Shown here: piece by piece, positions 1 through 7,168 of the stretch
Position numbering within the stretch: the first letter of the stretch is position 1
Layout of the letters: each line of letters begins with the position of its first letter
Origin: a virus
Taxonomy: Duplodnaviria; Heunggongvirae; Uroviricota; Caudoviricetes
Virus record (IMG/VR): IMGVR_UViG_2724678985_000019
DNA: 7,168 bases
Strand: one strand, 5' to 3'
The notes under the pieces: generated by a model
Told to the model about the DNA's origin: nothing
Seen by the model: only the letters and a program-made list of their open reading frames with translations
Databases searched by the model: none
Position numbers and translations under genes: made by a program

Positions 1-40
1 GCTGACGGACTTCGGGGGAAAAACGAGTATTTTTAGTCAT
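1..40 (-). CDS. IS3-family transposase OrfA, N-terminal fragment (truncated by window edge)
   Basis: Reverse complement of 1-40 translates to MTKNTRFSPEVRQ, identical to the N-terminus encoded at 7075 on the plus strand; ATG at 40..38. Confidence 0.8.
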   Translation of the reverse strand, partial: MTKNTRFSPEVRQ

Positions 41-94
41 CCTGTTTACCTCTTTCTCAGGGAGTTTAGGCTCCAGGATTTCCGGGGCGGTTCA
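1..94 (-). mobile_element. IS3-family insertion sequence, left (IRL) end, partial; element continues leftward out of window
   Basis: Bases 1-94 are the near-exact reverse complement of 7021-7114 (2 mismatches in the first ~40 bp). Terminus reads TGAACCGCCCCGG on the minus strand, typical of IS3-family TG...CA ends. OrfA start lies inside. IS629/IS1203/IS3411-like by recollection of the OrfA N-terminus, unverified. Confidence 0.85.
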
Positions 95-540
95 GACCGT
101 AGATATCTTACGAGCACGACAAACAACCGACATGTTGCGACGAAGCCAAAGCTGAATTCCACAAGCAGCGTGCCAATCTTTCTTATTCATTTGTTCTCTG
201 CAGAATGCGTCTGCTATTTACAGCGGACGCAATGCATCTTACGGACAAAAAATCATGTAAACAGATAGTAGTTCTTTTCGTACTCAGCTAAGGCATTTTA
301 TTCAGTCCACATGAGATTCTGCCTGTCTGATCAAGAGAATGCCAATAGTACTGTCGAATGTTAGTTATTTGATAAATATAGGATTCCAAAACAAAGTTGT
401 AGATTGCCTTGTCATTCAGCAATCAAGTAACTAAGCTGACCGGTTCAATAGCGACGGTACTACTTGTTTTGTACAATTTGTTGCGTAATGGTCTCTGATC
501 AGATAAACATACAACTGTTTTTATATACAGGTTTAATGAC

Positions 541-1611
541 ATGTTACAATACACATCTGTAGAGATTTGTGCAGGGGCAGGAGGTCAAGCTCTAGGGTTA
601 CATAACGCTGGCTTCACTCACCGCGCGCTCGTCGAGATTGATCCTGCTGCCTGCGAAACTCTTCGCCTCAACAATGAGCTCCATTCTTTAGGTTGGGAAA
701 ATATCATAGAGGGTTGCGTTAAGCATTTTGCTGAACATACTGCATATAATTTTTCTGATATTGACTTGGTCGCAGGGGGAGTGCCCTGCCCGCCATTCTC
801 AAAAGCAGGGAAACAACTAGGCAAAGATGATGAACGTGATTTGTTTCCAACAGCGCTCAAAATTGTGAACATCATTAAGCCAAAAGCAGTAATGATTGAA
901 AATGTTTCAGGTTTATTAGACCCAAAGTTTAAACAATACCGACAAGAACTAGATCATGCTTTCTCTGCAATGGGTTATAAAACCTTTTGGAAACTTCATA
1001 ACGCTTCTGATTACGGAGTTCCTCAGCTTCGTCCCCGAGTTCTTTTAGTTGCATTGCGTGGTAAGTATTCCGCTCATTTTCGTTGGCCGAGTGAAACGTT
1101 GATACCACCGACTGTGGGTGATGCTCTCTTTGACTTAATGTCACAGGGTGGCTGGGAAGGAGCCGAGGCATGGAGAAAGGCCGCTAACAATATAGCCCCT
1201 ACACTTGTTGGCGGTTCCCATAAGCATGGAGGTCCAGACCTTGGACCGACGAGAGCCAAAAAAGCTTGGCAAGCGCTTGGAGTCAACGGGCATTCCATAG
1301 CTGATAGTAGCCCTGAAAAGGGGTTTACTGGGTATATTGGAAGAGACGGAAATATTCGAGCAGGTCTTGAAAATATGCCTCGTTTGACGGTGAGAATGGC
1401 TGCACGAATCCAAGGTTTCCCGGACTGGTGGGAATTCTCTGGGAAAAAAACAGCTGCTTATCGTCAAGTAGGTAACGCTTTTCCTCCTCCTGTTGCCGAA
1501 GCAACAGGAAGGCAAATTCGTAAAGCACTCGAAGCGGTTGATCTAATGAAAAAAAAACAGTTGGCATCACCACTGGAATCGAATGATGTTCAAAGCTTGC
1601 GTATTGCGTAG
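541..1611 (+). CDS. DNA (cytosine-5)-methyltransferase
   Basis: Complete 356-aa ORF. C5-MTase motifs readable in the translation: motif I (EICAGAGGQALG), motif IV with catalytic Pro-Cys (GGVPCPPFSKAG), motif VI ENV (MIENVSGL), motif VIII (QLRPRVLLVA), motif X (RQVGNAFPPPVAEA). Short variable region implies a small target-recognition domain. Confidence 0.9.
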   Translation: MLQYTSVEICAGAGGQALGLHNAGFTHRALVEIDPAACETLRLNNELHSLGWENIIEGCVKHFAEHTAYNFSDIDLVAGGVPCPPFSKAGKQLGKDDERDLFPTALKIVNIIKPKAVMIENVSGLLDPKFKQYRQELDHAFSAMGYKTFWKLHNASDYGVPQLRPRVLLVALRGKYSAHFRWPSETLIPPTVGDALFDLMSQGGWEGAEAWRKAANNIAPTLVGGSHKHGGPDLGPTRAKKAWQALGVNGHSIADSSPEKGFTGYIGRDGNIRAGLENMPRLTVRMAARIQGFPDWWEFSGKKTAAYRQVGNAFPPPVAEATGRQIRKALEAVDLMKKKQLASPLESNDVQSLRIA

Positions 1612-2249
1612 TCAACGATTTCGTCTAAAGAAAAACCCTTTGCATCAGCTAGTTGTTGGGCTCTTCTTAAACTAGCTTCTGGCAGATGGAGCATTGTTGT
1701 TATCCCAAATTTTTCAGGAAATGCCCATGAGCATGTGTAACAATCTTCAGTACATCCCTCACATGCTCTTCTCTTACCTACGTTGCAATTGTGGCAAAGA
1801 GCTTGCCAATTGGTTAACTCATTTCCACCACCGCGTGACAAAGGTATTTTGTGATCCGCTTGTAGCCCCCTGACCCCAGCGGCAACAGTTTTACCACATG
1901 TTGCACATGTATTGCTGCAGTTAGAAAATAAACTGGATCGTTGTGATTCTGTCAGATATTCCCTTTCCATTGGCGGGGCAATCATGCTTGATTTCAGCCG
2001 CCAAGCATGTCCCGAGAATTCCGGAATGTACGAGCTTTCGAGATCACAGCCTAGTTCATCACGCAACTCTCTTGTTCGTCTATCGAAGTACTTTTGCCCT
2101 GTCAATTCCAGTAATTCTGTCGATGGGACCCAAGGTTTAGGAAAATCAAAATCATCTGAAACCCATAATCTCTTTAGGATAATCAACTTGACTTTACTCA
2201 ATCGCTTTTTTTTAGGTAACGCTGACAAATAATTTTCGAATAATTCCAT
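1590..2249 (-). CDS. HNH-family endonuclease, putative restriction partner of the adjacent MTase
   Basis: Complete 219-aa ORF. C-terminal HNH/zinc-ribbon signature CATCG...ADHKIPLSRGGGNELTNWQALCHNCNVGK, followed by an extra Cys cluster CEGCTEDCYTC. GAGAG Shine-Dalgarno-like sequence upstream of the ATG at 2249. Its 3' end overlaps the MTase 3' end by 22 bp (1590-1611), convergent. Confidence 0.85.
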   Translation of the reverse strand: MELFENYLSALPKKKRLSKVKLIILKRLWVSDDFDFPKPWVPSTELLELTGQKYFDRRTRELRDELGCDLESSYIPEFSGHAWRLKSSMIAPPMEREYLTESQRSSLFSNCSNTCATCGKTVAAGVRGLQADHKIPLSRGGGNELTNWQALCHNCNVGKRRACEGCTEDCYTCSWAFPEKFGITTMLHLPEASLRRAQQLADAKGFSLDEIVDYAIRKL

Positions 2250-2794
2250 ACTATCTCTCGAAAGAAACCTTAATCTCGCAAGGGATTACACCATAGATGG
2301 AAGTAGACAGGAAAGGGCTATCTAAAAGGGCAGGCATATAGAGCAATAATCAATGAAACAACCTGTACAGGCCTGCTAAGCTGCCCCCCCAAATGTCCAA
2401 CATCAATATCAGAAATATTGTTTCATCAAGATGAAAAAATCAACAAGACTGAGCCAATCTGAGATACGGATGCTCTATTGTTGATTTATGTTGACGAAAA
2501 TTACTTACACATGGAGTTACACGGAAAAAATCATGATGCAGACAAAGAGAGGATTTAATCGTAATTGCTTGATATAAATGGTCGATAATAGGAACAATAC
2601 ACATAGGTGATAAGCTTTGTTTTTGTTGCCTTTTTTATTGTTCATTTTTTATAGATACCCCCAAAAGTACCCCCATATCTTTTTCCGCACCTGAAATTTG
2701 GTTGTTATTCATACAGCATATCAGGCGGTAACGCTCTCCCTTTAACCCACTTATTGTATGATAGTGCTATCCCACAATAAGGAATCAGCCAGCC

Positions 2795-6249: not shown

Positions 6250-6254
6250 GATAC

Positions 6255-6284
6255 CCCTCGCGCGCGTACTTGTCTCGAAATTGG
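6255..6284. repeat. Repeat family copy C (partial), alternating-CG core
   Basis: CGCGCGCGTACTTGTCTCGAAAT at 6259-6281 matches the core and right arm of copies A/B; the left arm is absent. Confidence 0.5.
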
Positions 6285-6467
6285 TGTTTTGCTGTGGCAG
6301 TGATATCAGAAAAATCTTCCTGTTTCACATAAAGCGGATATGCGCGTACTGTAACGGCCCCATCAACGGGGATCGGATTTGAAATCCCGACCCAAGCTAT
6401 GTACCAAATGCCATGTCTTGGATATATGATGATTGCCATTCTAAACAAAGCTAAAGGGAGGGTTGGT

Positions 6468-6818
6468 GTGAATGCTCAGGCTGTCATCATGGTTTTCCTT
6501 GGTCTGATTGTCGCAAAACTATATCCAGACTGGTGGAAAGGGGCATTAGCAACTGTCGCCATCTATTTGCTTTTATCCGTCGTTAAGCGATCGTTCGTTA
6601 AGACCGTAAATCAAGCAAAACGTTTCTCATTTAAGAATTTAATAAACTATATTACTGGGCTTATTTTTTGCCTTTCAATTTTGATCGCCTCAGCTTTTTT
6701 GCCCGTATCAATAGCTAATTTTTTTGGCGCACCATATGAGGTAGGTTATCTATTCTCTGTTTTTTGTCTTGTTCTTTCCCTTCTTTACCTATGGATGAGA
6801 GCAAAGAACAAAAATTAG
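6468..6818 (+). CDS. Small integral membrane protein (~4 predicted transmembrane helices), unknown function
   Basis: The longest ORF starts at 6399, but a GTG at 6468 has a strong AAGGGAGG Shine-Dalgarno 6 nt upstream and sits just before the first hydrophobic helix (AVIMVFLGLIVAKL); in-frame ATGs at 6399, 6408, 6426 and 6429 lack a Shine-Dalgarno. Four hydrophobic segments ~15-20 aa each. Visibly AT-rich. Start is uncertain; the stop at 6816-6818 is firm. Confidence 0.6.
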   Translation: MNAQAVIMVFLGLIVAKLYPDWWKGALATVAIYLLLSVVKRSFVKTVNQAKRFSFKNLINYITGLIFCLSILIASAFLPVSIANFFGAPYEVGYLFSVFCLVLSLLYLWMRAKNKN

Positions 6819-7020
6819 CCATCCATGACGTTTTTATGTTAGTACCAACAGATTTACCACATTTATCATCTTAACAGTTTGAGTGAAAATGCAGGCTGCG
6901 CCGCAAAGGGAGGAGACTGAGTGGCGTGTTCAGTCTAAAAGAGGGTTGATGCCAGCATACAGGGGCGAAGCTGGTCAACAAGTCAACATTAAGATAATGG
7001 AATATTCGGAGAGAAACGTC

Positions 7021-7168
7021 TGAACCGCCCCGGAAAACCTGGAGACTAAACTCCCTGAGAAAGAGGTAAACAGGATGACTAAAAATACTCGTTTTTCCCC
7101 CGAAGTCCGTCAGCGGGCGATTCGTACGGTTCTGGAAAGACAGGATGAATATGACTCACAGTGGGCGG
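7021..7168 (+). mobile_element. IS3-family insertion sequence, left (IRL) end, partial; element continues rightward out of window
   Basis: Begins TGAACCGCCCCGGAAAACCTGGAG; inverted copy of 1-94; contains the OrfA start. Confidence 0.85.
7075..7168 (+). CDS. IS3-family transposase OrfA, N-terminal fragment (truncated by window edge)
   Basis: Translation MTKNTRFSPEVRQRAIRTVLERQDEYDSQWA; AGG Shine-Dalgarno-like sequence in GGTAAACAGG upstream; matches my recollection of IS629/IS1203-group OrfA. Confidence 0.8.
   Translation, partial: MTKNTRFSPEVRQRAIRTVLERQDEYDSQWA

Follow-up and report, generated by a model that had tools for sequence, protein, structure and literature searches.

Two separate IS1203 copies bound a complete 7,168-bp draft contig of Escherichia coli O111:H8 and very probably stem from independent insertions

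Introduction

Does a gene-bearing segment enclosed by two inverted copies of one insertion sequence represent a composite transposon, the product of an IS-mediated rearrangement, or resident DNA into which the element has inserted twice? This question is raised by a stretch of 7,168 nucleotides (hereafter the window, meaning the whole stretch), both ends of which consist of the same IS terminus. The original prediction had argued against a simple insertion and in favor of a composite-transposon-like unit or an IS-mediated inversion or deletion.

Results

The edges of the window are inverted IS1203 ends

A repeat search of the window disclosed two inverted arms of 97 nt (positions 1-97 and 7018-7114), which are 98% complementary and separated by 6,920 nt. 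Such an inverted repeat cannot have originated by chance in 7 kb. Direct comparison of the arms revealed exactly two mismatches, T versus A at IS position 17 (window 78 and 7037) and C versus A at IS position 25 (window 70 and 7045). Each arm is composed of 94 nt of the left end (IRL) of IS1203/IS629 and three flanking bases. The latter are host DNA, GAC at 95-97 being native to cbtA and GTC at 7018-7020 native to ykgL. The IS proper, starting with TGAACCGCCCCGG, comprises 94 nt on the left (1-94, minus strand) and 148 nt on the right (7021-7168, plus strand). The start codons of orfA are located at position 40 on the minus strand and at position 7075 on the plus strand, both giving MTKNTRFSPEVRQ... 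and both reading outward, with 13 codons inside the window at one edge and 31 at the other. This comparison agreed with the original prediction, which had described 1-94 and 7021-7114 as reverse complements with two mismatches and an outward OrfA at both edges.

The element is IS1203, an isoform of IS629 belonging to the IS51 group of the IS3 family. It is 100% identical to copies called IS1203 by RefSeq in O111 strain 11128, and on identical elements RefSeq places the label 'IS3-like element IS1203 family transposase, programmed frameshift' as well as a pseudoknot feature. The element contains orfA and orfB, two overlapping reading frames joined by a -1 programmed frameshift. Its full copies, found in the hybrid assembly described below, measure 1310 bp, have TG...CA ends (TGAACCGCCCCGG...CCGGGGCGGTTCA) and encode a 404-aa product matched by Pfam HTH_Tnp_1, HTH_21 and rve; the window holds their first 94 and 148 nt.

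The window is a complete short-read contig

The window is identical to the whole 7,168-bp draft contig LMBJ01000097.1 of the cattle E. coli O111:H8 isolate #22207. A look-up with the exact 44-aa product of the truncated ykgL gene as query yielded this contig and the hybrid assembly, while the 46-aa version with a GTG start gave no record under the same exact-product look-up. The assembly LMBJ01 was generated from MiSeq reads with CLC and comprises 822 contigs (PMC4751309), and draft contigs of O111 strains terminate mostly at IS elements (PMC6602927). Each end of the short-read contig halts inside an IS1203 copy because short reads are unable to bridge an IS of such high copy number (about 40 per chromosome); the IS1203 end was found at at least 37-40 places per O111 chromosome. 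The stretch is not a part of a longer sequence, and the label 'cargo' given to it is misleading, since the contig simply stops where the assembler met the repeat. The DNA left of the left IS in #22207 lies outside the window and could harbor a rearrangement of the type seen in strains 1056-1 or 11128 (see below).

Both copies are complete in strain 3313-O111

The assembly of the French O111:H8 strain 3313-O111 (L004), a nanopore/Illumina Flye hybrid with a contig of 5.27 Mb, is colinear with window 1-7168 at 99.93% identity. It contains two complete IS1203 copies of 1310 bp each, which are identical to each other over the 1310 bp and reside at positions 1896-3205 (left) and 10133-11442 (right). 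The hybrid assembly of this near-identical strain affirmed the predicted layout, i.e., two distinct inverted copies of an IS3-family element with IRL facing inward and about 6.9 kb enclosed, and gave the same orientation. Truncated YkgL was detected in three contigs larger than 1 Mb, two further places of the L004 kind being reported; the source paper of strain 3313-O111 lists three assemblies of it.

In L004, the right copy is flanked by both halves of ykgL and the left copy by both halves of cbtA. The right junction reads ...GAAACGTC, IS, CGTCAGGCAG, compared to ...GAAACGTCAGGCAG in the intact gene of 11128, so that a perfect direct 4-bp duplication, CGTC, borders the IS; its left copy is located at window 7017-7020. 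At the left junction (...ATCTTCAGTC, IS, GACCGTAG...; intact RM9387: ...ATCTTCAGACCGTAG...) cbtA' and 'cbtA directly adjoin the element, with a 3-bp duplication GTC/GAC compared to a single GAC in the intact gene. For IS629, target duplications of 3-4 bp have been described (PMC3271280), a length which the right (CGTC/CGTC) and the left duplication (GTC/GAC, two of three bases matching) share. Both copies are complete in L004 and each has a duplication of its own. The outer flanks of the pair in L004 (...TTCAGTC before the left copy and CGTCAGG... after the right one) do not form a direct repeat. The left duplication is imperfect, as GTC and GAC differ at the middle base, the two triplets also being reverse complements of each other; therefore, the history of the left insertion may be somewhat less simple.

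The contig and the hybrid assembly differ at five positions, four of which reside within the 242 nt of terminal IS, one in the left copy (window 70) and three in the right copy (7037, 7127 and 7140). Among 23,609 IS places of complete E. coli genomes, each of the three right-end variants is absent. The two mismatches between the arms belong to the private variants of the contig ends and are probably assembly noise, and we infer the same for all four contig-end variant bases; these could also be real mutations. The original argument that two differences between the copies speak against an assembly collapse is weak, since the variants are private and the copies in L004 are identical over 1310 bp. 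Mismatches at contig ends within a high-copy IS should not be taken for biology.

The DNA between the copies spans the thrW island and the chromosomal backbone

Next to the left IS, positions 95-155 (plus strand) contain what is left of the 3' part of a CbtA-family toxin pseudogene that the element interrupts, GAC at 95-97 being the native target triplet. Window 91-300 is 100% identical to the uninterrupted cbtA loci of IS-free genomes. A C5 cytosine DNA methyltransferase gene (541-1611, plus strand; Pfam PF00145, E 1e-68; PADLOC type II MTase / DruM models) and an HNH endonuclease gene (1590-2249, minus strand; Pfam PF01844; PADLOC REase_II, E 5e-21) are convergent, overlap by 22 nt and likely constitute a type II restriction-modification pair. 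Apart from these generic type II methyltransferase and restriction-enzyme matches, the PADLOC scan of the window gave only a weak AlpA-like match, and the Rfam scan of the window identified no RNA family.

By sequence comparison, positions 2577-2593 (minus strand) were assigned to a remnant of the 3'-end of tRNA-Thr thrW, an att-type island junction that separates two island modules. Colinearity with RM9387 extends over window 91-2593 and reaches into the thrW gene of that genome. The distal module of a P4-like thrW integrative element extends from 2594 to 6827 (plus strand), as indicated by Pfam matches and by comparison with CFSAN061761, in which window 2569-6827 is present at 99.9% identity at the far end of a thrW int-primase element. 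This module comprises a 119-aa ORF, a pRiA4b ORF-3 protein, PerC, AlpA, small ORFs and an iteron-like array. Positions 6828-7020 (plus strand) are chromosomal backbone, namely the upstream region of ykgL and its first 44 codons beginning with the ATG at 6889, and share 100% identity with the ykgL loci of numerous strains, K-12 among them. The truncated 44-aa YkgL ends at TGA, a stop codon supplied by the first three bases of the IS (7021-7023). The interior crosses the boundary between island and backbone, leading from thrW-island DNA into chromosomal ykgL.

The interior is colinear with genomes that carry one or no IS copy

Strain E2863 and four other complete O111 genomes harbor exactly this left insertion, an intact ykgL gene and the same interior. 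Window 1-7020 is colinear with the single-IS genome E2863 in the same orientation (99.93% identity), and relative to E2863 nothing has been lost between 95 and 7020. The interior is colinear with IS-free relatives as well. The gene ykgL is intact in 11128 and E2863; the ykgL-IS junction was present in none of 5,426 complete E. coli genomes, and two French bovine O111:H8 isolates are the only ones in which the insertion was seen. At least 80% of the window is covered in 32 genomes, every one of them O111 or O111-like, and the eight of these that were examined each contain the segment at the thrW-ykgL locus, no other location being found in the genomes examined. No plasmid covered more than 17% of the window.

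The best genome matches seemed to cover 71-7168, an artefact of joined pieces: in these genomes the left IS has the opposite orientation and ykgL is intact. Likewise, an insertion hot spot in ykgL, suggested by short metagenome and Logan contigs (L007-L013) ending at the same codon, was rejected. The contigs end in intact ykgL (...GTCAG) and surfaced because the look-up demands the exact 44-aa product.

Other strains have undergone changes in this region. Compared with E2863, strain 1056-1 has a 4.6-kb block from hyp to cbtA' in reversed orientation, enclosed by an inverted IS1203 pair, and strains 11128, 2015C-3108, RM9131 and 95NR1 exhibit further IS-linked rearrangements of the thrW island. 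Recombination alone does not lead from the baseline to the arrangement of 11128, because cbtA' abuts the IRL end there, not IRR. The proposal that IS elements remodelled a larger island thus holds loosely for the O111 thrW island of other strains, not for the IS pair studied here.

Discussion

The window is very probably a complete draft contig bounded by two separate IS1203 copies that arose by independent, ordinary insertions. Each copy carries a duplication of its own, left-copy-only genomes show a colinear interior, the segment occurs at a single locus in the genomes examined, and an outer duplication is lacking; therefore, two independent simple insertions account for the structure, contrary to the composite unit, inversion or deletion originally favored. 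Copy-out/paste-in is the known mode of movement of the IS3 family and is assumed here. The older insertion would have struck the cbtA toxin pseudogene of the thrW island, where it is common to many O111 genomes, and the younger one the chromosomal gene ykgL, generating the 4-bp duplication; we infer this order. By chance the two copies lie in opposite orientation, leaving 6.9 kb between inverted repeats, and the enclosed DNA (restriction-modification pair, att remnant, P4-like tail and ykgL start) has been neither moved nor turned.

With one IS present in inverted orientation on both sides of a set of genes, the structure recalls compound transposons of the Tn5/Tn10 type, and two copies of the same IS do flank the segment. 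That the inverted pair and the 6.9 kb were inserted as a unit, or are able to move as one, nevertheless has next to no probability. In place of an outer duplication each IS has its own; left-IS-only genomes possess an identical interior at the identical place; and the segment was found on no plasmid and has no second known location, all examined genomes containing it between thrW and ykgL. Moreover, cbtA and ykgL continue natively across both inner junctions, and therefore the interior is resident DNA including chromosomal backbone, not foreign. Past movement as a composite unit is contradicted by these data. A further difference from Tn10 and Tn5 concerns the mechanism. Members of the IS3 family move via a circle, and the promoter at the transposon-circle junction needs an IRR-IRL junction, whereas both outer ends of the putative unit would be IRR.

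Inverted copies may also result from rearrangement, either by homologous recombination between them or by intramolecular transposition from the cbtA copy into ykgL. Comparable events are known in the thrW island, as the inversion in 1056-1 and the IS-linked changes in the four other strains demonstrate. As in 1056-1, identical 1310-bp IS1203 copies in inverted orientation, with a few kb between them, offer RecA a substrate for inversion. Unlike in 1056-1, the bracketed DNA of the window and of 3313-O111 has the orientation of single-IS E2863, so no inversion occurred. Intramolecular inversion would, in addition, split inverted duplicates between the IS copies and flip the interior, whereas the ykgL duplication is direct and surrounds the right IS itself. 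With nothing absent between 95 and 7020, a deletion is not indicated either, and we consider an origin of the pair by inversion or deletion extremely unlikely. An equally slight chance is left for an assembly artefact, in which both ends would be one collapsed IS copy or the contig would be mis-joined or circular. Such an artefact is suggested by a short-read contig finishing in a repeat of about 40 copies and by the clustering of four of the five differences in the IS sequence at the contig ends, a pattern typical of a poor consensus where a repeat begins or ends. However, the unique DNA beside the two ends differs (cbtA and ykgL), colinearity of the interior extends to many closed genomes, and in the hybrid assembly of the near-identical strain each of these very junctions has a full IS copy of its own.

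We also considered that the IS1203 pair turns the 6.9-kb block into an invertible or mobilisable cassette in the French bovine O111:H8 lineage and, separately, that a recurrent GTC beside IRL reflects an unrecognised target preference of IS1203. This is very unlikely. If true, the cassette would consist of the methyltransferase/HNH pair, PerC, AlpA and the origin-like iteron array, and could flip when the identical copies recombine, or move through transposase action at the outer IRR ends. The triplet GTC was found 5' of IRL at three of ten distinct junctions. The preference is not significant, as two of these junctions triggered the idea, leaving one of eight. In the literature, no clear target consensus has been reported for IS629.

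The two insertions, then, are of an ordinary, already known kind. They resemble the IS1203/IS629 polymorphisms of enterohaemorrhagic E. coli (O111, O157), where the same element occurs in many copies with 3-4 bp duplications, interrupts island and backbone genes and breaks draft assemblies. Nothing of substance sets them apart from these; the site in ykgL is rare, the insertion itself ordinary. What looks like cargo between inverted IS copies can be simply a contig of short reads whose ends fall in a high-copy IS. How IS1203 diversifies O111 genomes is well illustrated by the thrW-ykgL region, an effect that IS629 is already known to have in enterohaemorrhagic E. coli, and for O111 epidemiology the ykgL::IS1203 allele could mark the lineage of the French bovine O111:H8 clone.

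Inverted IS1203 ends at the edges of the window

The repeat search revealed a single long inverted repeat in the window, whose arms (1-97 and 7018-7114, with 6920 nt between them) are 98% complementary and differ by two mismatches in a base-by-base comparison. Each arm consists of 94 nt from the start of an insertion sequence, which begins with TGAACCGCCCCGG, and three flanking bases. The latter are native cbtA (GAC) and native ykgL (GTC) sequences, and their complementarity is a coincidence. The orfA genes start at 40 (-) and 7075 (+), both giving MTKNTRFSPEVRQ... and reading outward. 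Repeat search, base comparison and translation thus agree with the original prediction of inverted IS3-family ends with two mismatches and outward orfA, an arrangement far beyond chance.

By megablast against complete E. coli genomes, both window ends were labelled 'IS3-like element IS1203 family transposase' with a programmed frameshift. IS1203 is an isoform of IS629 first described in O111:H- and belongs to the IS51 group of the IS3 family (PMC6602927, PMC3271280). Complete copies in related loci measure 1310 bp, possess TG...CA ends and encode a product with HTH_Tnp_1, HTH_21 and rve domains. The right-hand 148 nt of the window matched 23,609 places in 3609 of 5426 complete E. coli genomes, and each O111 chromosome harbors the IS1203 end at no fewer than 37-40 places.

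Over its full extent, the window is identical to the 7168-bp contig LMBJ01000097.1 of assembly GCA_001455025.1, retrieved through its truncated YkgL of 44 aa (6889-7023). The assembly stems from isolate #22207, an enterohaemorrhagic E. coli O111:H8 of ST16 that produces ESBL and originates from diseased cattle in France; its MiSeq reads gave 822 contigs with CLC (PMC4751309). The window is thus a complete contig with its ends inside a high-copy repeat; contigs of O111 draft genomes reportedly terminate mostly at IS elements or prophages (PMC6602927).

Two copies and their target sites

Strain 3313-O111 (O111:H8, from a French bovine food product) was assembled with Flye from MinION and Illumina reads, and its 5.27-Mb contig is colinear with window positions 1-7168 (99.93%). 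The respective region (L004) contains two complete IS1203 copies at 1896-3205 (-) and 10133-11442 (+), which are identical to each other over 1310 bp. This long-read hybrid assembly, showing the same layout as the window, confirmed in a near-identical strain the predicted orientation and two physically distinct, inverted copies with their IRL (left IS) ends inward. That both edges represent one physical IS copy or a mis-joined contig is contradicted by these two full copies, by the differing unique flanks of the two ends and by closed genomes colinear with the interior. The same truncated YkgL is carried by three contigs larger than 1 Mb, with two similar places besides those listed; for strain 3313-O111, three assemblies are given in its source paper.

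In L004, the right copy reads ...GAGAAACGTC-IS-CGTCAGGCAG..., compared to ...GAGAAACGTCAGGCAG... in the intact ykgL of strain 11128. It is flanked by a perfect 4-bp target duplication in ykgL, inside the range of 3-4 bp reported for IS629 (PMC3271280), and the first three bases of the IS provide the stop codon (TGA) of the truncated YkgL. The left copy reads ...ATCTTCAGTC-IS-GACCGTAGAT..., while the uninterrupted cbtA pseudogene of the IS-free strain RM9387 reads ...ATCTTCAGACCGTAGAT.... Here, both cbtA halves adjoin the IS with a 3-bp duplication, the left one being off at the middle base (GTC vs. GAC). GTC was found directly 5' of IRL at three of ten distinct IS1203 junctions, namely in cbtA (95-97), in ykgL (7018-7020) and in the yeeU-cbtA spacer of strain 95NR1 (L015, 14095-14097). 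IS1203 may have a weak target preference for GTC, which among the ten junctions was not significant after removal of the two sites from which the hypothesis had come.

Five complete O111 genomes (E2863, SD134209, 2009C-3675, 7-16 37A and TW05614) share the left insertion and the interior but possess an intact ykgL, and the ykgL-IS junction was absent from all 5426 complete E. coli genomes. These comparisons indicate that the ykgL insertion is rare and later than the insertion in cbtA.

According to the original prediction, the IS pair would form a composite-transposon-like unit or result from an IS-mediated inversion or deletion. Neither is supported. The outer flanks of the pair (...CAGTC and CGTCAG...) form no direct repeat, as a composite transposon would have it; instead, each IS has its own target duplication and the inner junctions are native. 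Moreover, the segment has no second location: none of the plasmids covered more than 17% of the window, and all eight contexts examined carry it at the thrW-ykgL locus. The proposed comparison with genomes lacking IS copies was also made. Single-IS strain E2863 is colinear with window positions 1-7020 (99.93%) in both order and orientation of the interior, arguing against an inversion, and nothing is missing relative to it, arguing against a deletion; in RM9387, cbtA is uninterrupted. An intramolecular inversion would furthermore part and invert the ykgL duplicates, which in L004 directly flank the right IS. Thus, a well-known high-copy IS very probably inserted twice, each time independently and by simple insertion, and the short-read contig ends in these two copies. 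IS1203 insertions of this kind are already known.

The window and L004 differ at five positions, four within the 242 nt of terminal IS (70, 7037, 7127 and 7140) and one, an indel at 2582, within the 6926-nt interior. As the best match to the right-hand 148 nt among the 23,609 IS places reached 98.0%, i.e., three mismatches, no known copy in complete E. coli genomes has even one of the right-end variants (7037, 7127, 7140), two of which would change OrfA residues when translated against the L004 consensus. Judged by sequence, the four terminal variants are most likely consensus errors at repeat-bounded contig ends. The mismatches had been taken to argue against a collapsed repeat; the conclusion of two copies stands on other grounds, and the variants do not show that the copies differ, those of the sister strain being identical.

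Interior of the window

The bracketed DNA spans the boundary between island and backbone. At least 80% of the window was covered by 32 genomes, every one of them from an O111 or O111-like strain. The cbtA tail (95-155) is followed by convergent genes for a C5 methyltransferase and an HNH endonuclease (541-2249) overlapping by 22 nt, which have the appearance of a compact type II restriction-modification pair; this pair directly adjoins thrW in RM9387. Between the HNH gene and a P4-like module, a 17-nt remnant of the thrW (tRNA-Thr) 3'-end, TCCTATTATCG-ACCA, resides at 2577-2593 (-). It marks an old att junction between thrW islands arranged in tandem and now lies in inverse orientation to thrW. 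The indel at 2582, the sole interior difference from 3313-O111, falls within this remnant.

Positions 2594-6827, which contain pRiA4b ORF-3, PerC and AlpA, represent the distal portion of a P4-like thrW element and are followed by chromosomal backbone (6828-7020), comprising the sequence upstream of ykgL and codons 1-44 of this gene. An iteron-like array at 4604-4740 opens with three direct GTTGGTTCA units, which an AT-rich spacer separates from three inverted TGAACCAAC units. Its part 4604-4668 also matches positions 27609-27672 of L016, which in the thrW P4-like element of strain CFSAN061761 lie just downstream of a TOPRIM/DUF927 primase gene; this placement suggests a satellite-type replication origin. 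Two paralogous small ORFs of 61 and 63 aa (3810-3995 and 4806-4997, both (-); MTPREI(A/E)LLTIAKLEHGGHQL...) are 72-77% identical at the DNA level and have a spacing of exactly 1002 nt; neither matched Pfam. A direct repeat of 28-40 nt, present in three copies (4217-4256, 5962-5999 and 6259-6286), contains the perfect palindrome TACGCGCGCGTA and may be an operator or binding site.

Remodelling of the thrW-ykgL region in O111 strains

The thrW-ykgL region differed in nearly every O111 genome inspected, and these varied layouts indicate that IS1203 remodels the thrW island of O111. The window's IS pair has caused no remodelling so far; an identical inverted pair is a plausible substrate for a future inversion. 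Relative to the baseline E2863 (L018; one IS in cbtA), strain 1056-1 (L017, 8416-15606) has a 4.6-kb hyp-to-cbtA' block inverted between an inverted IS1203 pair. Its junctions contain the extra bases CAC and AGCA, absent from the antA-hyp spacer of E2863, so that either orientation of the block could be ancestral.

Strain 11128 harbors two direct IS1203 copies, a truncated integrase and the hyp-to-cbtA' block inverted. There, cbtA' adjoins the IRL end and not, as in E2863 and L004, the right end (IRR), ruling out recombination alone as origin. The sequence suggests an IS-adjacent deletion via a 2-nt microhomology. The copy at 4906-6215 (L001) has TTG on both sides, its flanks being the truncated integrase and cbtA'. 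In strains 2015C-3108 and RM9131, the left IS has the opposite orientation, its junction is shifted inward by 1 or 11 nt, and the upstream partners are different. In strain 95NR1, the methyltransferase module has the reverse orientation and the P4-like tail is largely absent.
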